Source: Clostridia bacterium | GTDB taxonomy: Bacteria > Bacillota > Clostridia > RGIG6154 | Reading direction: 5' to 3' | DNA length: 64,000 nt | Assembly: GCA_045593265.1 (NCBI GenBank) | Contig: JAZNWH010000105.1 | Location: 19,216-83,215, forward strand | Part shown: positions 47,002-59,446 of the stretch, piece by piece | How positions within the stretch are numbered: the first letter of the stretch is position 1 | Layout: every line of letters starts with the position of its first letter | Notes under the pieces: model-generated | What the model was told of the DNA's origin: nothing | Databases searched by the model: none | The model's input: the letters and a program-made list of their open reading frames with translations, nothing else | Position numbers and translations under genes: made by a program

Positions 47002-47871
47002 TCAATATGGGACAACAATATTTTTTGCCACTTTGATTTCTTCATCTGTTGGTAAGGTCTGTGGCAGCGTATTTTTCATATTTAACGCAGCATATTTTGA
47101 GCCAGCATAATTATGATACGGCAAAACTTTTACCCTTGTTATATTTTGAAGCTGTTTTAAAGATTCTGCAATTTTTTCAATTTGGTCAGAATTATATTCA
47201 GGTACATATGGTATACGAATTTCTGTTTCTTTGCCCAAAGAATCGATATATTTAAGATTATCCAATATAATTTTATTGCTTTGTCCTGTGCATTTAACAT
47301 GCACATTCTCATCAATTGCCTTAATATCATATAAAAATGTATCGGTGTAAGGCAAAACCTTATCAATACTTTCTTTTGGTACATATCCACAGGTATCAAC
47401 TGCTGTATTTATACCTTCTTTTTTTAACATATGTAAAAGCTCTGCACAAAAATCTGCCTGCATAAGACATTCTCCGCCCGAAAGTGTTACTCCGCCGCCG
47501 CTTGTTTCATAAAAGTCCTTATCTTCAAGTAATATCGGCAAAAGTTCATCTACTGTCATTTCCTTGCCGTAAAATTTCAGTGCTTCGCCAAGACAAGCCT
47601 TTTCACATTTTCCGCAAGCAACACATAAATCTCTTTCAAAAATATGACCTTCTCGTGTGATTTTGTGTGCACCTGATGGGCATACAAAAACGCATTCGCC
47701 GCAACTGATGCACTTGTTTTCGTAATATGCAAGCTGAGGCTTAAAATCAATGCTTTCGGGATTGTGGCACCACACACATTTTAGTGGACAGCCTTTGAAA
47801 AATACCGTTGTTCTTATTCCGTCACCATCGTGTACAGCAAAATGTTTTATATCAGAAATTAATGCTTTCAT
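47002..47871 (-). CDS. glycyl-radical enzyme activating protein (radical SAM, with two ferredoxin-like 4Fe-4S motifs)
   Basis: 289 aa. Radical [11 protein letters not shown], then [12 protein letters not shown] and [11 protein letters not shown]. Overlaps the GRE by 4 nt. Confidence 0.85.
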
Positions 47872-50105
47872 TTAGCATTCTCCGCTCTTAAAATATATGC
47901 ATCCTGCTCTTTTTTGCTCATATTATTCCAAAGAGTATTCCAACCACAAACTCTAACCTGCAGATTTTGATATTTTTCCGGATTTTTTTGTGCATCACGC
48001 AGAGTGTCTGTATTAAAAATATTGAACTGAATTGACTGACCGCCTTTGTTAAGATAGGTCATAAGAACACCTTTTAGCACATTTAATCCATCCTCGCCTT
48101 CAACTGCACTCGGGTGAAGCATAACATCAACACAAAACGATTCGTGATAATCAGACGGAATGAGCTTAGTCGCAGACTCAACCAAAGCCGTAACACCTTT
48201 TTTATCCATACTGACAACGGGAGAAGCATTTTTAGACAGTTCTTCTCCTTTTAATCTTCCATCCGGCAAAGCTCCGGTTTTTTCTCCCTGGTTTATAAAA
48301 GCACGGGCAGTGTGGAATATCGCTTTATACACACCGCCTCTGCCATTAGGTACATTATTCACCTTATTTGCAAAATAGCTTGCCATAGCTGATGCGTAAG
48401 TATCTGCCACAGCATCGTTGTTACCATATTTATGTGGCGATTTTTTTATTTGAATCTGTAATTTTTCGTAACCCTTCCAGTTAACTTCCAAAACCTTTGC
48501 AAGCTCAGACAGCGTTATTTCTTTTTTATCAAAAACAAATTCTTTTACCGCCATAATGCTGTCAACCGCACTGGCAAAACCGCAGTTAAGCATCGCATTG
48601 TTATTGAACTTAACACCACCGCCGTATCCGTCTCTGCCGTTTTTCAAAGAAGTTTCAATTGTCGCAGAATACATAGATGACGGATTTACAAATGCAAGAA
48701 AACGTTCTGCATCATTTGTGATTTTCATACTTTGCTCAATGAGATATTCCCATTGTTTTAAAAAGGCAAAATAGAAATCTTCAAATGTTTTGATTTCTGA
48801 AATCTCACCTGTTTTTACACCAACCTGTTTTTTAATCCCATAATCATACCCATTAGTAAACACAAACTCCACGGCTTTTGCCACATTTACATATCCCGAA
48901 GATGAACAAACCTCATTTGCCCTGACTCCTGTTTCATAACATCCTCTGATATCATAGTTAATCGCTTCTTCATAAGTAGCTCCATAACCCATTATAGCTT
49001 TTATCATAGCAGGCTCACAACAAAATACAATGCTGGCATTTTTTCGGCGAACCATATCAAAAGCTTTATTTAAGATTTTATCAGGTGTATTTTTATTTAT
49101 CTTCAACTGTATTTTAGGGTTATAGATTTCAAGCTCATCATATACATCAAGAATTTCGTATGAAAGTTCGTTGTACTTCGTGTTGCTGTTTAAATCGGTG
49201 CCACCCATATAAAACGGTTGCCCCCAATAGTTGCCTATGGCAGACCACTGCATAAAAAAGTAAGATAAATAATTTCTTATATCCTCTTTTGTGCATTTCC
49301 CCGACTCCAGATCATTTTTATAAAATCCGTACAACGTATTATCAAGACCGTTGCCTAGAGAACGAACCTGATAACTGTCTATTGATTCAGATATTATAAA
49401 AAATATATAAATAAACTGTAATGCCTCATAAAAACAAGTTGGATGTCCATCACGAAGATTTTTTAAACACTCAGCTATTTGAGGTGCCTTTTCAAAGGTT
49501 AATTCGCAAGCAGTACGATACATTCTGTCAATTAAATCAATAATTGCTGTGTATTGAATTTCAATGCCATCGAAAAATGCTTCTGTTTCTTTAGTCATAG
49601 TTTTGTTCTCACTGTGCATTTTACGGTATTCTCTTGCTCTTTCACGAATGCCAACAAACCCTAATTCCATTAAAGATTTCCAGTCAGGAACAACATGATC
49701 ATAGTCTGTACGTAGTGTTACTGCACCTGAATTGTTAAAATCATTGGAGCACTCCATAGTCTCGGGATTTCTTAAGGTGTGTGATTCTTTTTCCCATTTT
49801 TTGAAGGTGCTTTCGTTAGCTAAACGATTCAGCGAATAAAGACCTACAAAATAATCGTGCTCATTTATATACAAACGTTGATTTTCAAGAACATATTTAA
49901 TGGCTTTTGCTCTTACAATCGGGTGAGGTAAATTTTCGTTCTCCTTCGAAAGCTGTTCAAGTCCTTTTAACAGTTCCTCATCAACTATCCCACTTTCCTC
50001 TATATAGCCTGTTCCGTGATATGCCATACGGCTAAATGCATCAAATTCTTTTTCGGGATCGTGATATTTTCGTTCAATAAAATATCTGTCTGCAGAATTA
50101 ATCAT
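47868..50105 (-). CDS. glycyl radical enzyme, PFL2/glycerol-dehydratase-like clade, substrate unknown
   Basis: 745 aa from MINSADRY; RBS AGGTGGAG. The ORF could extend to 50129. C-terminal glycyl motif LQVRVCGWNT. Cys loop IRGCYETG sits 332 residues upstream of the radical Gly. Confidence 0.85.
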   Translation of the reverse strand: MINSADRYFIERKYHDPEKEFDAFSRMAYHGTGYIEESGIVDEELLKGLEQLSKENENLPHPIVRAKAIKYVLENQRLYINEHDYFVGLYSLNRLANESTFKKWEKESHTLRNPETMECSNDFNNSGAVTLRTDYDHVVPDWKSLMELGFVGIRERAREYRKMHSENKTMTKETEAFFDGIEIQYTAIIDLIDRMYRTACELTFEKAPQIAECLKNLRDGHPTCFYEALQFIYIFFIISESIDSYQVRSLGNGLDNTLYGFYKNDLESGKCTKEDIRNYLSYFFMQWSAIGNYWGQPFYMGGTDLNSNTKYNELSYEILDVYDELEIYNPKIQLKINKNTPDKILNKAFDMVRRKNASIVFCCEPAMIKAIMGYGATYEEAINYDIRGCYETGVRANEVCSSSGYVNVAKAVEFVFTNGYDYGIKKQVGVKTGEISEIKTFEDFYFAFLKQWEYLIEQSMKITNDAERFLAFVNPSSMYSATIETSLKNGRDGYGGGVKFNNNAMLNCGFASAVDSIMAVKEFVFDKKEITLSELAKVLEVNWKGYEKLQIQIKKSPHKYGNNDAVADTYASAMASYFANKVNNVPNGRGGVYKAIFHTARAFINQGEKTGALPDGRLKGEELSKNASPVVSMDKKGVTALVESATKLIPSDYHESFCVDVMLHPSAVEGEDGLNVLKGVLMTYLNKGGQSIQFNIFNTDTLRDAQKNPEKYQNLQVRVCGWNTLWNNMSKKEQDAYILRAENAK

Positions 50106-50217
50106 ATAATCTCCACCTTTCAAACGCATTTTAGCATAAAAAGAAATTTAATACAATGAATTAAAAGAAACATTTGACTTTTTAGAAACAAAATTATATA
50201 ATAAATACGGTGATTAT

Positions 50218-50988
50218 ATGATTAATTTTATGAAACATGATTTTATTATTGATAAAATTGAGCTTGCATGTATAGTAAAAGCCGGAAAAGGTTCAATGAT
50301 TCACAAAAACAGAGCAAGCAATGGATTGGCTCTGTTTTTAGGTGGCGAAAGAACTTTCTGCTTTGATGAGAAAAAGTTTAAGGTTACCAAAAACACAATC
50401 GTGTATTTTCCAAAAGGCTCAAACTACGTGATTAAAGAAAGAGAAGCTTCTGATTGCTATGCAATTAACTTTCAAATGCCTGATAACGTATTTTTTGAGC
50501 CGTTTGCATTTAAAATAAAAAATCTTAACACATATTTAGAAAACTTCAAAAACAGTCAGAAAATATGGGATAAAAAATCTACGGGGTATTTTTCGAAAGT
50601 TAAATCTGAGCTTTACAGCATAATTTACAATATGCAGTCAGAATATCTTATTCCGTACGGTAATTCATCTGTAATTAAGCCAGCTATTGATTATATACAC
50701 TCGAATTATTATAAAGAGAACATAAGTGTTGTGCATCTGGCATCACTCTGCGATATCAGCGTTGTGCATTTAAGAAACTGCTTTATTAAAAATTTCGCCC
50801 TATCGCCTGTTAAATATATAAATTTTCTTAAGCTAACTCGTGCAAAAGAGTTGCTTGAGTCAGGAATGTATACTGTTGGTGATGCTTGCTTCTTATCCGG
50901 CTATAATGACGAAAGCTATTTTTCCCGTGAATTTAAAAAGTCTTTTAAAAAATCACCAAAAGAATATGCAAAAGCATCCCGTAAATAG
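50218..50988 (+). CDS. AraC family transcriptional regulator (cupin-like sensor + HTH), divergent from GRE
   Basis: 256 aa with a C-terminal AraC HTH. Confidence 0.8.
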   Translation: MINFMKHDFIIDKIELACIVKAGKGSMIHKNRASNGLALFLGGERTFCFDEKKFKVTKNTIVYFPKGSNYVIKEREASDCYAINFQMPDNVFFEPFAFKIKNLNTYLENFKNSQKIWDKKSTGYFSKVKSELYSIIYNMQSEYLIPYGNSSVIKPAIDYIHSNYYKENISVVHLASLCDISVVHLRNCFIKNFALSPVKYINFLKLTRAKELLESGMYTVGDACFLSGYNDESYFSREFKKSFKKSPKEYAKASRK

Positions 50989-55486: not shown

Positions 55487-55963
55487 TTATCTTTTAAATA
55501 TTTCGTTTTTATTAACAACTGTATACAGCATCTGTCCCAATAAACCGCAGGAAATAATTTCTCCTAACGCTACTGTAAACATAATAAACCCAAAACTTTC
55601 TTTTGCGCCATAAACATACATTAATACAAATGGTACTATAATTGCATTGGAAAGTATTGGTGGAACAGGAAGAAGCCATCTGTTTTTAATTTTTGATGTA
55701 AAATATGCTCCTATAAAAGTAGCAACACTGCCAAATACAATATCCCACAATGCACATCCTGTCAAAAGATTTGCAATAACACAACCTACCGTTAATCCAA
55801 GGACAGCTTCAGGGAAGAAATACGGAAGTATTGTAAGAGCTTCTGAAAATCTTACCTGCACTACCGAACCCGAAAGTCCAAATATTGCAGAAATCAGTGT
55901 AAGTACCACATACAAAGCTCCTATTGCCGATGCTTTTGTTAAATACTTGATTTTTTTGTTCAT
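55487..55963 (-). CDS. queT: queuosine precursor transporter QueT (ECF S-component, DUF988)
   Basis: 158 aa, 5-6 TM, QueT-like, with a preQ1 riboswitch directly upstream. Confidence 0.7.
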   Translation of the reverse strand: MNKKIKYLTKASAIGALYVVLTLISAIFGLSGSVVQVRFSEALTILPYFFPEAVLGLTVGCVIANLLTGCALWDIVFGSVATFIGAYFTSKIKNRWLLPVPPILSNAIIVPFVLMYVYGAKESFGFIMFTVALGEIISCGLLGQMLYTVVNKNEIFKR

Positions 55964-55971
55964 TTGTAAAT

Positions 55972-56014
55972 TCTCCTTAGTTTTGTTTTGAGTGAGGATG
56001 GTTACGAACTCACT
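55972..56014 (-). ncRNA. preQ1-I riboswitch controlling queT translation
   Basis: Minus strand reads AGUGAG-UUCGUAACCAUC-CUCACU-CAAAACAAAACUAAGGAG, then AAUUUACAAAUG. Compare T. tengcongensis CUGGG-UCGCAGUAACC-CCAG-UUAACAAAACAAGG and B. subtilis ...AUAAAAAACUAAGG. The SD sequence lies in the 3' tail. Confidence 0.6.
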
Positions 56015-56020
56015 TTTATA

Positions 56021-56962
56021 TTAATAAAATGTTGCTACTTCCTGCTCAGGTTTTTCTGAATATTCCATAGCTGTTACATACATTACAGGGCCTCTACCTC
56101 TGTAAATTTTATGTTTTTCAACTTTAATTTTTGCTGTAACTGTTACCCAGTCTTTTAATTTCAAATTCATCATTTCATCGCCGACACAAACAACACCTCG
56201 GTATTCTATGTCATCCACACAACATGTCATAATGTGTCTCCCTATTATTGCTGTGTTTTCAGGCATTTTTGCATCCTTTGCAACAATACCCTTAAAGCAA
56301 ACCTTTTTACCATCGTATTTTGTAAAATCCTCTACCAGATCACGATACCATAAAGCATAATCTTTATCTTCTATACTTATTATATCTGCGTTGATATCAA
56401 ATGGAAGAGGGTCTTCAATCTCGTCTATTTCCACAACGCCTTTTATGTTTTCGTAAAGAATTTCCGTTTTTCTTGATACACCTCTTACCAGCTTATGCAA
56501 CTGGGGCTTTATATCATCGTCGTCAGCACGATTAAATACCACAAGCTCACAATTATTAAGCTTGTCTACAACCAGATTTCTCATATTTGCATTGTACTGC
56601 AATATAGTAGTAGCATCGGCAAACATAACCTCCTGATAGACAACCCAGTTATCAGGCATCTGAGTATAAAGATGAGGTAAATCCCACATACCGTTATACT
56701 CTATCATTACTCTTTCACAACCTGTTTCTTTCTCAAGCTTTTTTAAAGAAACCAGAGAAATATCTTCTTTATCATCTATCTCTCTGATAATAACATTCTT
56801 ACACACAAATCTTGAAGGGTCGTATTCTTCTTCCCCGTCTTCACACATAAGAAGAAGCGTTTTTTCAGCATTGTTGAATTTTTTATCTTCCAGTGTTTCC
56901 TGAATGAATTTTGTTTTACCTGATTCAAGAAATCCTGTAAATAAATATACGGGTATCTCCAT
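56021..56962 (-). CDS. COG0523 (CobW/HypB/UreG G3E GTPase) family paralog, degenerate
   Basis: 313 aa. Walker A degraded to GFLESGKT and the CxCC metal motif is absent (LLMCEDGEE). CobW_C-like C-terminal domain. Confidence 0.65.
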   Translation of the reverse strand: MEIPVYLFTGFLESGKTKFIQETLEDKKFNNAEKTLLLMCEDGEEEYDPSRFVCKNVIIREIDDKEDISLVSLKKLEKETGCERVMIEYNGMWDLPHLYTQMPDNWVVYQEVMFADATTILQYNANMRNLVVDKLNNCELVVFNRADDDDIKPQLHKLVRGVSRKTEILYENIKGVVEIDEIEDPLPFDINADIISIEDKDYALWYRDLVEDFTKYDGKKVCFKGIVAKDAKMPENTAIIGRHIMTCCVDDIEYRGVVCVGDEMMNLKLKDWVTVTAKIKVEKHKIYRGRGPVMYVTAMEYSEKPEQEVATFY

Positions 56963-56972
56963 AACTTACTCC

Positions 56973-58061
56973 TTATTCTATACCAAATAACTCGGTGATT
57001 TTATGCTCATCGATTTTTGAACCTATTACACAAATTCTTCCTGTTATATCAGCTCCGCCTGAACGTACATCAGGTTCGCCCGGAACATAGTCAAAATGAA
57101 TCCAACTTGAATCTTCTGCTTCTACAATTCCCTTTGCTCTCAAAATCATACCATATTCAGTTTCATCATTCAAAGCATTAAGTATACGTTCAATTTCTTC
57201 AACTGTAAACTTTTTAGTAGTTTCAGTTCCCCAGCTTGTAAACACCTCGTCAGCATGATGATGTTCGTGATGATGGTCATGACAGCCACAAGAACATTCT
57301 TCACCATGATGGTGCTCATGTTCATGATGATGCTCATGTTCATGATGGTGCTCGTGCTCATGGTGATGTTCGTGTTCATGGTGATGTTCGTGTTCATAAT
57401 GATGACCACATACAGGACAAGCACTTTCCTGTTCGTCTTTTAATTTTTCAAGAACAGCATCAAGTGTAGACTCTCTTTCTATCGCTTCAAGAAGCTGTTT
57501 TCCTGTGAGCATATCCCATGGAGTCGTAACTATAACTGCATCTTTATTATGCTCTCTAATAAGCTCTGCTGCTTTTTTTGTTTTTTCCTCGCCTACTGTT
57601 TGAGTATGACTTAAAACAATACATCCTGCATGCTCAATCTGATCATTGTAAAATTCACCGAAATTTTTCATATACATTTTGCATTTTCCTGCATCTGCAA
57701 CAGCAGTAAATCCATTTAACACCACATCATCGGCTTCTATATCTCTTACAGCTTTTATTACATCACTCAGTTTGCCAACGCCTGAAGGTTCAATCAAAAT
57801 TCTGTCAGGAGAAAAATCTGCAAGAACTTTTTTAAGTGCTTCGCCAAAATCTCCTACAAGACTACAGCAAATACATCCCGAATTCATTTCTGTAATTTCT
57901 ATTCCTGCTTCCTTTAAAAACCCTCCGTCAATACCTATTTCACCAAACTCATTCTCTATTAAAACAACCTTTTCACCACAATAAGCTTCCTGAATAAGTT
58001 TTTTAATGAGAGTAGTTTTTCCTGCACCTAAAAAACCTGAAAATATATCTATCTTTGTCAT
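56973..58061 (-). CDS. COG0523 family metallochaperone GTPase with His/Glu-rich metal-binding tract
   Basis: Start MTKIDIFSGFLGAGKTT after AGGAGG. Has the GCICC motif. Tract CPVCGHHYEHEHHHEHEHHH...HGEECSCGCHDHHHEHHH. Upstream TTGACA-17-TATAAT promoter. Confidence 0.8.
   Translation of the reverse strand: MTKIDIFSGFLGAGKTTLIKKLIQEAYCGEKVVLIENEFGEIGIDGGFLKEAGIEITEMNSGCICCSLVGDFGEALKKVLADFSPDRILIEPSGVGKLSDVIKAVRDIEADDVVLNGFTAVADAGKCKMYMKNFGEFYNDQIEHAGCIVLSHTQTVGEEKTKKAAELIREHNKDAVIVTTPWDMLTGKQLLEAIERESTLDAVLEKLKDEQESACPVCGHHYEHEHHHEHEHHHEHEHHHEHEHHHEHEHHHGEECSCGCHDHHHEHHHADEVFTSWGTETTKKFTVEEIERILNALNDETEYGMILRAKGIVEAEDSSWIHFDYVPGEPDVRSGGADITGRICVIGSKIDEHKITELFGIE
57255..57410. repeat. 18-bp tandem coding repeat (x5-6) encoding (HEHEHH)n within the COG0523 gene
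   Basis: ttcatgatggtgctcatg / ttcatgatgatgctcatg / ttcatgatggtgctcgtg / ctcatggtgatgttcgtg / ttcatggtgatgttcgtg. Confidence 0.8.
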
Positions 58062-58178
58062 AACTTTTTTCCTCCTTTGAATCTTATAATTTGCAGCATA
58101 CACTAAATACTAATTATACATAACTTTTTCATTCCTGTCAATTGCTCTTCATAACCAATCAGATAGAATTTAAAACAC

Positions 58179-58697
58179 TTATCTTTTCGAAAGTTTTACT
58201 ACTTTGTCGTGTATCAAATGCCAATTACCCTTATCATTAATTTTAATTGCCTTGTCTGTTTTATATAATGTTTTAACAGAATTATTACTGTAATCAACAC
58301 TAACATAATTTGATAGATATTGATTAAGTTCTTTATGCAAAGGAATTGCCTCTTTTATCATATCAGGATTATTTTTCATAATTCTTAAAAGAAGCTTATA
58401 ATCATCAATTAAATACTCTAAAAACATGTCCCTCTTCGGATAAATTGTATAATAAAAAACAAACTCTTCTTCTATCTTATCACAAATATTTATGGCATTA
58501 ATTATTGAAGATTCAAAATATCTGTTAGGCTCATCATCTGAATACATATTCTCATACAAATTAGATAATTGATGTATATTTGAAATTATATAATCAGAAA
58601 TATTCTTTGATATTCTTTGCTTGTTGTTTACATGCACTACATTAATTATTCCCAGAACAACAATCACTGCAACCAACAATGTAACAATTTTCTTCAC
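58179..58697 (-). CDS. hypothetical membrane-anchored protein (N-terminal TM, 172 aa)
   Basis: Very AT-rich, no homology recognised. Confidence 0.45.
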   Translation of the reverse strand: MKKIVTLLVAVIVVLGIINVVHVNNKQRISKNISDYIISNIHQLSNLYENMYSDDEPNRYFESSIINAINICDKIEEEFVFYYTIYPKRDMFLEYLIDDYKLLLRIMKNNPDMIKEAIPLHKELNQYLSNYVSVDYSNNSVKTLYKTDKAIKINDKGNWHLIHDKVVKLSKR

Positions 58698-58750: not shown

Positions 58751-59446
58751 TTATTCTTTAATGGTTCTATTTATATAAGTTGCGTATATAAGTGGCACTA
58801 TTATCAAAAACATAGGAACTATATATAATGACATTGAATTTTCAATATTAAATACAGAAAGTGAATTCATTAAAGAATGTGTAATTATACAAGGGATGAG
58901 TGATTTACTTTTATAAAATATAATAACAAATAAATATCCGATTGAAAAAGCATAGCATATTTGCATTAATGTTGGAATTAATTCTGCACCGTTTAACAAA
59001 TTAATTATATGTCCTATTCCAAAAGTAATTGCATTTACAATTATTGCAATTCTAACATTATCTTTTTCCATCATTTTAAATAAAAACCCTCTGAAAATTA
59101 TTTCCTCAATAAATCCAACATTTATCATGGTTAGCACATAAAATACAATATCGCCTGTTGAATGATTTATGTTAATTCCATTCCACAAGTTTACAGTTGA
59201 TATTAGAATTAATGGAAAGAAAAATAAATATTTCTTTGGATTTTTGATTTTGGTAATACCATAATATTTTGTCCTGCCCAAAGCAATCATCAATACTATT
59301 AAAAATACAGAAAAAACAGTATTAACAATTGTGCTTCTATAATCAATTAAACCGAAATTCTGAATACAATAAGAGTTTATAATCAGATAAAGTAAAACTA
59401 ATAATATACAAAATAAAGTTTCATTCTTTTCAAATATTTTTTTCAT
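58751..59446 (-). CDS. CPBP family intramembrane metalloprotease (CAAX protease/Abi-like)
   Basis: 231 aa. EEIIFRGFLF, HIINLL and HSLMNS motifs. Confidence 0.75.
   Translation of the reverse strand: MKKIFEKNETLFCILLVLLYLIINSYCIQNFGLIDYRSTIVNTVFSVFLIVLMIALGRTKYYGITKIKNPKKYLFFFPLILISTVNLWNGININHSTGDIVFYVLTMINVGFIEEIIFRGFLFKMMEKDNVRIAIIVNAITFGIGHIINLLNGAELIPTLMQICYAFSIGYLFVIIFYKSKSLIPCIITHSLMNSLSVFNIENSMSLYIVPMFLIIVPLIYATYINRTIKE

Follow-up and report, generated by a model that had tools for sequence, protein, structure and literature searches.

A conserved gene pair encoding a His-rich COG0523 metallochaperone and a G3E-like protein with a DUF1980_C domain in gut Clostridia

The COG0523 metal chaperones (among them YjiA and YeiR of Escherichia coli, ZigA and MigC of Acinetobacter baumannii, ZagA/YciC of Bacillus subtilis, CobW, and the eukaryotic ZNG1) have been described as probably monomers (PMC11672702). 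They are widespread, though few of their partners and clients are known, and reviews portray them as largely Zur-controlled. The G3E nickel chaperones HypB and UreG form G-domain dimers in a nucleotide-dependent manner and bind the metal where the two subunits meet. Proteins of the TIGR03943 type (DUF1980, B. subtilis YcgQ) are accessory to PF03773/ArsP_1 permeases. Here we describe two adjacent genes on the minus strand of a 64,000-nucleotide (nt) stretch of contig JAZNWH010000105.1 from a Clostridia bacterium (assembly GCA_045593265.1); this whole stretch is called the window. Gene A encodes a His/Cys-rich COG0523 protein, and gene B, directly downstream, encodes a G3E-like P-loop domain joined to a DUF1980_C OB fold. 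An earlier note on the window had taken the two for tandem COG0523 paralogs, one intact and one degenerate.

Gene A resembles the COG0523 chaperones in G1, G3, the N(G/S)CxCC motif, the His-rich linker and a CobW_C domain with RxKG. It departs from them at G4, which reads S[HR]Tx instead of [NT]KxD, and in being always paired with a second G3E-type protein. Compared with the Zur-regulated members (YciC/ZagA/ZigA type), it lacks a Zur box and has a promoter of constitutive appearance. Instead of the CH/CPH interface motifs of HypB and UreG, gene B has an invariant switch I residue, Cys40. Unlike in the HypB and UreG systems, no hydrogenase or urease genes were found near the pair, and any A-B dimer would be a heterodimer of unlike subunits. 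In the searchable literature we found no experimental or comparative description of the A-B pair, of a G3E-DUF1980_C fusion or of DUF1980 function, and nothing relevant on TIGR03943/DUF1980/YcgQ/UPF0703/PF21537 or on COG0523 in Clostridia. Databases already list both families, by the generic names GTPase, GTP-binding protein and CobW.

Two unlike G3E proteins encoded as a pair

We identified orthologues of both genes and examined their neighbourhoods. Out of at least 596 stretches matching gene B in species-representative genomes, 80 species-representative loci were recovered, and a gene A orthologue lay directly upstream of gene B on the same strand in every one of the 80 loci with upstream sequence. 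Five loci had at first seemed to lack gene A; in four of them its C-terminal end was found at the contig edge, and the fifth had only 27 nt of upstream sequence. The adjacency was also present in metagenome contigs (about 84 Oscillospirales loci overall) and in three lineages of a Lachnospiraceae-type clade whose gene B is 31% identical to that of the window, and it was reciprocal in three look-ups begun from gene A matches. The cultured Vescimonas fastidiosa MM35 carries the pair, which RefSeq names 'CobW family GTP-binding protein' and 'GTP-binding protein'. A single gene B protein, identical throughout, was indexed in 1853 blocks of the public assembly collection. The called gaps between the two genes ranged from 10 to 39 nt; in the window gene B begins 10 nt past the stop codon of gene A, and its ribosome-binding site overlaps that stop codon. 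By clustering all flanking open reading frames (ORFs), we found no third conserved gene beside the pair, the next commonest family occurring in 9/80 loci, all within one lineage. On this comparative evidence A and B are an obligate pair, strictly conserved in hundreds of species of gut Clostridia, and the suggestion of the earlier note that gene B might be a partner of gene A fits this strict synteny. The pair represents a COG0523 subfamily with a fixed, co-encoded partner, a putative second subunit predicted to be an NTPase. Long matches that looked like natural A-B fusion proteins, a possible hint of a complex, were rejected as assembly or read-through artefacts.

The product of gene A matched Pfam cobW (E 5e-36) and CobW_C (30.3 bits, cut-off 22), and its sole relative in the PDB was YjiA of E. 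coli (E 5e-20). In the ORF-finder list the gene spans 56973..58103 with a GTG start. The real start is most likely the ATG at 58061, giving 362 amino acids (aa), because this codon is preceded by GGAGGA and matches the conserved N-terminus MTKI.IFSGFLG of 73 orthologues. In an alignment of these orthologues the Walker A motif GFLGAGKTT (GxxGxGK[ST]) was conserved at 90% or more and IENEFG was likewise conserved. The metal motif N(G/S)CxCC, between G2 and G3, was present as NSGCICCS and identical in 73/73. The G3E Walker B motif (hhhhExxG) was present as ILIEPSGVG, with IEPSGVGKL conserved across the orthologues. RxKG, an invariant arginine-finger motif of COG0523 C-terminal domains (PMC13001444, a 2026 preprint), occurred as LRAKGI in 66/73 sequences, LRAKGM in three and LRSKGI in three; the last sequence is masked there, so that all 72 readable ones have it.

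His, Cys and acidic residues abound in the roughly 55-residue linker of gene A, which has 29 His within 60 aa and includes the tract CPVCGHHYEHEHHH...CSCGCHDHHHEHHH. The earlier note had singled out this tract together with GFLGAGKTT and GCICC, and all three are indeed there. All 73 orthologues had 20-36 His per 60 aa in the linker along with Cys and Asp/Glu, and often C-x-C-G-C; length and repeat pattern varied between them. In the window an 18-nt tandem repeat at 57305..57404, with 5.6 copies and 87% matches, codes for the (HEHEHH)n part, and the wide differences in repeat unit and length among orthologues suggest expansion and contraction by slippage.

The G4 motif [NT]KxD was absent from gene A, where LSHTQ aligned with LTKTD of YjiA. 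In the Oscillospirales gene A family an Asp occupied the fourth position of S[HR]Tx in only 11/73 sequences, while the Lachnospiraceae-type clade retained SRTD; nucleotide specificity may have shifted within the family. Gene A scored far below the NCBIfam equivalog cut-offs for CobW (84.9 against 332.1), ZigA (72.7 against 600) and PRK11537 of the YjiA type (83.1 against 361) and therefore belongs to a separate subfamily. Judged by its motifs, gene A is a genuine, complete COG0523 protein with one deviation, at G4.

The earlier note had described the P-loop of gene B, GFLESGKT, as corrupted, and the protein as degenerate and perhaps a pseudo-enzyme. GFLESGKT, however, fits GxxxxGK[ST]. We assessed conservation in two sets, one of 70 close relatives and one of 28 sequences whose identity falls as low as 31%. 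G10, G15, K16 and T17 were invariant in the 70 sequences and conserved at 90% or more down to 31% identity, and E88, N90 and G91 of the Walker B motif (ExxG) were invariant even in distant members. E41 and G43 of switch I, as well as N144 and R145, were likewise invariant or conserved at 90% or more. P-loop position 13 was always Glu or Asp, and the Asp at the fourth position of G4 was not conserved. The note was right that gene B lacks CxCC: no family member had a Cys at the aligned position. It is not a plain tandem COG0523 paralog, since Pfam found no CobW_C in it and its C-terminal half, which would hold RxKG, is a DUF1980_C OB fold.

In a search with gene B against clusters at 90% identity every candidate scored, at least 8000 of them, reached E ≤ 0.001, and among the matches listed 120/120 relatives were full-length, at 312-322 aa (313 aa in the window). 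We calculated ratios of nonsynonymous to synonymous substitution (dN/dS) only from pairs with dS below about 0.8, distant pairs being saturated. Close pairs (dS 0.2-0.8) gave 0.011-0.056 for gene B and 0.011-0.095 for gene A, and gene B of the window compared with that of its closest relative, locus L005, gave 0.069. An AlphaFold2 model of gene B built on the 70 sequences had a mean predicted local distance difference test (pLDDT) score of 90.6; its N-terminal domain matched YjiA, HypB and UreG and its C-terminal domain matched OB folds. The N-terminal domain combines a predicted SIMIBI/G3E fold with Walker A GxxxxGK[ST] and Walker B ExxG. We conclude from sequence and model that gene B is a distinct, well-conserved family under strong purifying selection and is not degenerate.

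We also examined the regions upstream of gene A. The earlier note had reported a promoter TTGACA-17-TATAAT of constitutive appearance and no evident Zur/Fur-like box, and both observations held, in the window and in 73 orthologous upstream regions. What these regions had in common was a -35 and an extended -10 box of the sigma-70 type together with a ribosome-binding site resembling GAAAGAAGTG, and nothing else; boxes comparable to those of the window stood upstream of most gene A orthologues. The window showed no Zur-type site ahead of gene A, and in all 73 regions the best match to TCGTAATNATTACGA, a Bacillus-type consensus, had at least four mismatches. Neither a shared palindrome nor an enriched k-mer was detected in the 73 regions beyond the -10 box and the ribosome-binding site, and no Zur-, Fur- or PerR-type boxes were found. 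Expression of A-B thus looks constitutive and outside Zur control. A module lacking recognisable zinc-starvation control would then be present in hundreds of species, including very abundant Ruminococcus, Oscillospiraceae and Lachnospiraceae of the human and ruminant gut.

The DUF1980_C domain and its permease connections

Residues 191-307 of gene B matched Pfam DUF1980_C (PF21537) with E 2e-23 and 83.1 bits (cut-off 25.9). The C-terminal part also matched NCBIfam TIGR03943 'putative permease subunit', at 79.8 bits, below the cut-off of 88.8. Compared with TIGR03943 proteins, gene B lacks an adjacent permease and the N-terminal DUF1980 membrane domain (PF09323), in whose place it has the G domain. 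Within the OB domain R242, M245, C247 and D251 were invariant and C248 was conserved at 90% or more, again down to 31% identity. In the model this R..M.CC..D motif lies in a loop between two predicted beta-strands. Five membrane TIGR03943 proteins share the R, C248, the D, W272 and P292 of gene B, which make up the signature R..(C)C..D plus W and P. OB folds of AspRS, RPA and MCM were among the structural matches; nucleic-acid binding is disfavoured because the OB domain (net charge -1 to -3) and the whole protein are acidic (about -16 for the N-terminal domain).

To place the domain, we ran tblastn with it against annotated plasmids and megaplasmids. The search found canonical TIGR03943 proteins, each with a DUF1980 membrane domain and DUF1980_C and each adjoining a PF03773/ArsP_1 'permease'. 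Metal-related neighbourhoods and His/Cys-rich loops were seen among these plasmid copies. On Priestia megaterium pBM400 (L097:4428-8641) two tandem permease-TIGR03943 pairs form part of a metal-resistance island that also holds a P-type ATPase, two HMA2 proteins, CopC and YcnI. Loops of the pBM400 TIGR03943 proteins (CECSHDH, CDCGCGHSH) resemble the linker motif CxCGCH of gene A. A 56-aa 'GTP-binding protein' encoded on Priestia sp. J2 pA (L100:5765-5935) is a CobW_C remnant with RxKG (VRAKGI); its gene is flanked on one side by a permease-TIGR03943 pair and on the other by an opp1-type nickel/cobalt ABC transporter.

Clostridium butyricum pNPD4_2 encodes a 537-aa protein, WP_071981825 (L096:3904-5517), with a cobW-like G3E domain at aa 7-179 (Pfam E 8e-14) and a PF03773/ArsP_1 permease at aa 239-530; a TIGR03943 gene adjoins it. 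This fusion is kept in nine C. butyricum megaplasmids. Its G domain has the variant features of gene B (GLLESGKT, within GxLESGKT; IETNGM, within ExNGM; no CxCC). In contrast to gene B, it is fused to the permease and not to the OB domain, and no His-rich COG0523 gene stands beside it. The C. butyricum fusion and its TIGR03943 neighbour contain the same three building blocks otherwise arranged. The G domain of the fusion was 27% identical to gene B (E 1e-12) and 22% identical to gene A (E 9e-13), and gene A was 25% identical to gene B (E 3e-6). The G domain of gene B is therefore at least as close to the permease-fused domain as to gene A, which speaks against gene B being a plain tandem duplicate of gene A. 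As judged by these sequences, domain fusions join a CxCC-less G domain, a DUF1980 OB domain and a PF03773 permease in varying combinations. The G domain of gene B would accordingly be an old partner of a transporter-associated system, and not a recent decayed duplicate of gene A. Through these shared domains gene B ties a COG0523 subfamily to the uncharacterised DUF1980/PF03773 permease systems.

In two metagenome representatives, P0281 and P0296, DUF1980_C seemed to be joined to a HisRS-like domain or to the N-terminal region of RecD2; such fusions are probably gene-call or assembly artefacts. ZevAB of Haemophilus was considered as a DUF1980 system and dropped, because ZevA is described as a periplasmic ABC component.

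A model for A-B and the alternatives to it

We propose that A-B is a conserved bicistronic module encoding a two-subunit, nucleotide-driven metal-handling system, a reading in which our confidence lies modestly above an even balance. That A and B act together in metal trafficking is about as probable, and we place far less confidence in any one geometry or client. In the proposed mechanism A and B would be made together from a strong promoter that bears no sign of Zur control. They would associate, possibly through their G domains as in the dimers of HypB and UreG; a G-domain heterodimer of this kind is an attractive model by analogy. A would hold metal at CxCC and in the His/Cys/acidic linker, which could take several further ions, and would contribute its own RxKG arginine finger. 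B would supply a second nucleotide-binding domain and an OB domain whose Cys-Cys/Asp/Arg site might serve as a metal recipient or as a docking surface for a client or permease. Binding and hydrolysis of nucleoside triphosphate (NTP) would move a thiophilic divalent metal between the store on A and the site on B, and then to a client or permease. The metal would most likely be zinc, because of the chemistry of CxCC in characterised relatives; nickel or cobalt, which are less likely, would suit the CxCGC and poly-His linker. The G4 Asp is gone from the majority of proteins in either family, so that strict specificity for GTP may be lacking. If A and B do work in this manner, they would offer a concrete two-protein system for asking how a COG0523 chaperone passes on its metal, and a first functional handle on DUF1980.

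Several points weigh against the two-subunit proposal. The association of A with B, their metal binding, the identity of the metal, the direction of transfer and the client are all inferred. No obvious client gene was found in about 95 A-B loci, nor was a PF03773 permease homologue detected in these loci (within 6-7 kb) or in the 64-kb window. His243, part of the GRH motif in the window, was not conserved in distant members of the gene B family, and the ligand set of the OB-domain site is therefore uncertain. The loss of the G4 Asp from both proteins makes nucleotide specificity, and even the predicted hydrolysis by B, uncertain. Finally, individual species may have a divergent operator, as the search for regulatory sites used a Bacillus-type consensus and motif enrichment only.

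A stronger form of the proposal would make A-B the first COG0523 obligate heterodimer of two unlike G3E domains, both lacking guanine specificity, with an OB Cys-Cys site inherited from permease accessory proteins and coupled to a PF03773-type permease or a housekeeping client. We regard this form as speculative and doubtful; if true, dominant gut Clostridia would possess a constitutive pathway for allocating metal that operates apart from the Zur regulon.

Among the alternatives, coupling to transport survives best, and we still consider it unlikely. Here B would be a cytoplasmic equivalent of TIGR03943 whose OB domain docks on a PF03773-type permease encoded elsewhere, and A would load or unload metal there, coupling uptake or export to the chaperone. 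DUF1980_C is otherwise found only beside PF03773 permeases, and the C. butyricum fusion of a B-like G domain to a permease and the CobW_C remnant beside a permease-TIGR03943 pair point in the same direction. In one genome an HMA protein and a P-type ATPase are encoded upstream of the A-B pair. Against this stand the lack of a PF03773 gene around the pair noted above and the loss from B of the membrane-anchoring N-terminal domain of DUF1980.

An idea in line with the earlier note, that B is a COG0523 paralog in decay or devoid of catalytic activity and at most regulates A without nucleotide binding, is improbable. The missing CxCC, CobW_C/RxKG and G4 Asp would agree with it, as would the unusual conserved acidic residue at position 4 of the P-loop and the weak Pfam cobW match (E 2.5e-7). 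However, Walker A GxxxxGKT and Walker B ExxG are kept down to 31% identity, dN/dS is 0.01-0.07 and the model shows a confident G3E fold; gene A's family has also lost the G4 Asp, so this loss does not mark B as dead.

queT and other neighbours of the pair

In the window gene B is followed by queT. In line with the earlier note, a probable preQ1 riboswitch precedes queT: a preQ1-I aptamer, beginning 1 nt past the stop codon of gene B, matched RF00522 over its full length with 36.9 bits, just under the gathering score of 39 (E 1.7e-4). The 3' tail of the aptamer includes the Shine-Dalgarno sequence of queT, and a nearly identical aptamer is present in L005. Co-transcription of queT with A-B from the same promoter is plausible in the window lineage: the gap from the gene B stop codon to the aptamer is too short to hold a promoter, and none of the predicted terminators lies between gene B and queT. 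Translation of queT would stay under its own riboswitch.

The earlier note had seen in this linkage a hint of a connection between metal delivery and queuosine metabolism. The adjacency proved not to be conserved. Directly after gene B, queT was found only in the window and in L005, whose gene B is 87% identical; among the other 79 species-representative loci it lay within 6 kb, in other arrangements, in two (L009 and L050). A Lachnospiraceae species that is very common in the gut encodes QueH (epoxyqueuosine reductase; L085-L087:5006-5638) immediately upstream of gene A, a second, independent juxtaposition of A-B with a queuosine gene. A role of the pair in supplying metal to a queuosine-salvage or tRNA-modification enzyme would account for these cases and would suit the ThiI, LeuRS and ThrRS neighbours of other loci. 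We nevertheless consider such a role very improbable. Each arrangement is restricted to one lineage, queuosine genes are absent from the vicinity of the pair in at least 75/80 species loci, queT is preceded by a riboswitch of its own, and the acidic OB domain and acidic B as a whole argue against RNA binding. Unrelated neighbours recurred at least as often, with 8 loci for ProC, 6 for class II aldolase (7 with L092) and 5 for a PBP. Since the cases are lineage-specific and no commoner than such neighbours, a queuosine connection is unsupported, and we regard queT and its riboswitch as incidental, lineage-specific neighbours outside the conserved module. Least probable of all, and barely credible, is that A and B are independent and adjacent by operon inheritance only: each has its own nucleotide-binding domain and their interaction is deduced from sequence, but order, adjacency and a short gap are kept across two orders of Clostridia, with gene B down to 31% identity, while all other flanks change.

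Coordinates of the features of the locus are collected in Table 1.

Table 1. Features of the A-B locus, in positions of the window
Feature	Position	Strand	Basis
Promoter TTGACA-17-TATAAT of the A-B operon, sigma-70-type	58113..58141	-	12/12 consensus matches
Shine-Dalgarno GGAGGA of gene A	58070..58075	-	Read from sequence, 8 nt before ATG at 58061
Gene A, His/Cys-rich COG0523 (G3E) metallochaperone, 362 aa	56973..58061	-	
Gene A Walker A / G1 GFLGAGKTT, aa 9-17	58011..58037	-	≥90% conserved, 73 orthologues
Gene A CxCC metal motif C63-I-C-C66 within NSGCICCS	57864..57875	-	Identical in 73/73; aligns with YjiA GCICC
Gene A G4 position L-S-H-T (then Q), replacing [NT]KxD	57603..57614	-	Alignment with YjiA L-T-K-T-D
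Gene A linker, His/Cys/acidic-rich, aa 215-269, with CSCGC	57255..57419	-	His count
Gene A C-terminal-domain RxKG motif R308-A-K-G311	57129..57140	-	Orthologue alignment
Gene B, predicted G3E-like P-loop NTPase domain without CxCC (aa 1-~185) and DUF1980_C OB fold (aa ~190-313)	56021..56962	-	
Gene B Walker A G10-F-L-E-S-G-K-T17	56912..56935	-	Alignments
Gene B Walker B / G3 E88-Y-N-G-M-W93	56684..56701	-	E88, N90, G91 invariant even in distant members
Gene B G4 position F-N-R	56528..56536	-	N144, R145 conserved, later residues variable
Gene B OB-domain signature R242-H-I-M-T-C247-C248-V-D-D251	56210..56239	-	Family conservation
preQ1-I aptamer	55971..56019	-	Rfam RF00522, 36.9 bits, just under gathering score
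queT, queuosine-precursor transporter	55487..55963	-	Pfam QueT E 2e-41

Recurring neighbours (class II fructose-bisphosphate aldolase, queT, QueH and aminoacyl-tRNA synthetases) were also considered as clues to function and rejected, as they recur within lineages only and ProC and PBP are as frequent. Class II fructose-bisphosphate aldolase, a divalent-metal enzyme, is encoded directly beside A-B downstream of gene B in L016 and L025 and upstream of gene A in L039, L044, L059 and probably L024; it also adjoins the pair in L092. The aldolase may be a client of the pair, or its position may be coincidental.

Close by the A-B promoter in the window, on its upstream side, lies a minus-strand ORF of 172 aa (58179-58697) with an N-terminal hydrophobic segment and no Pfam or NCBIfam match, and beyond it a CPBP/Rce1-like intramembrane protease (58751..59446). 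Farther away, at 47002-50129 on the minus strand, are genes for a glycyl-radical enzyme (PFL-like and Gly_radical, 753 aa) and its radical-SAM activase (289 aa), adjoined by an AraC-type regulator at 50218..50988.

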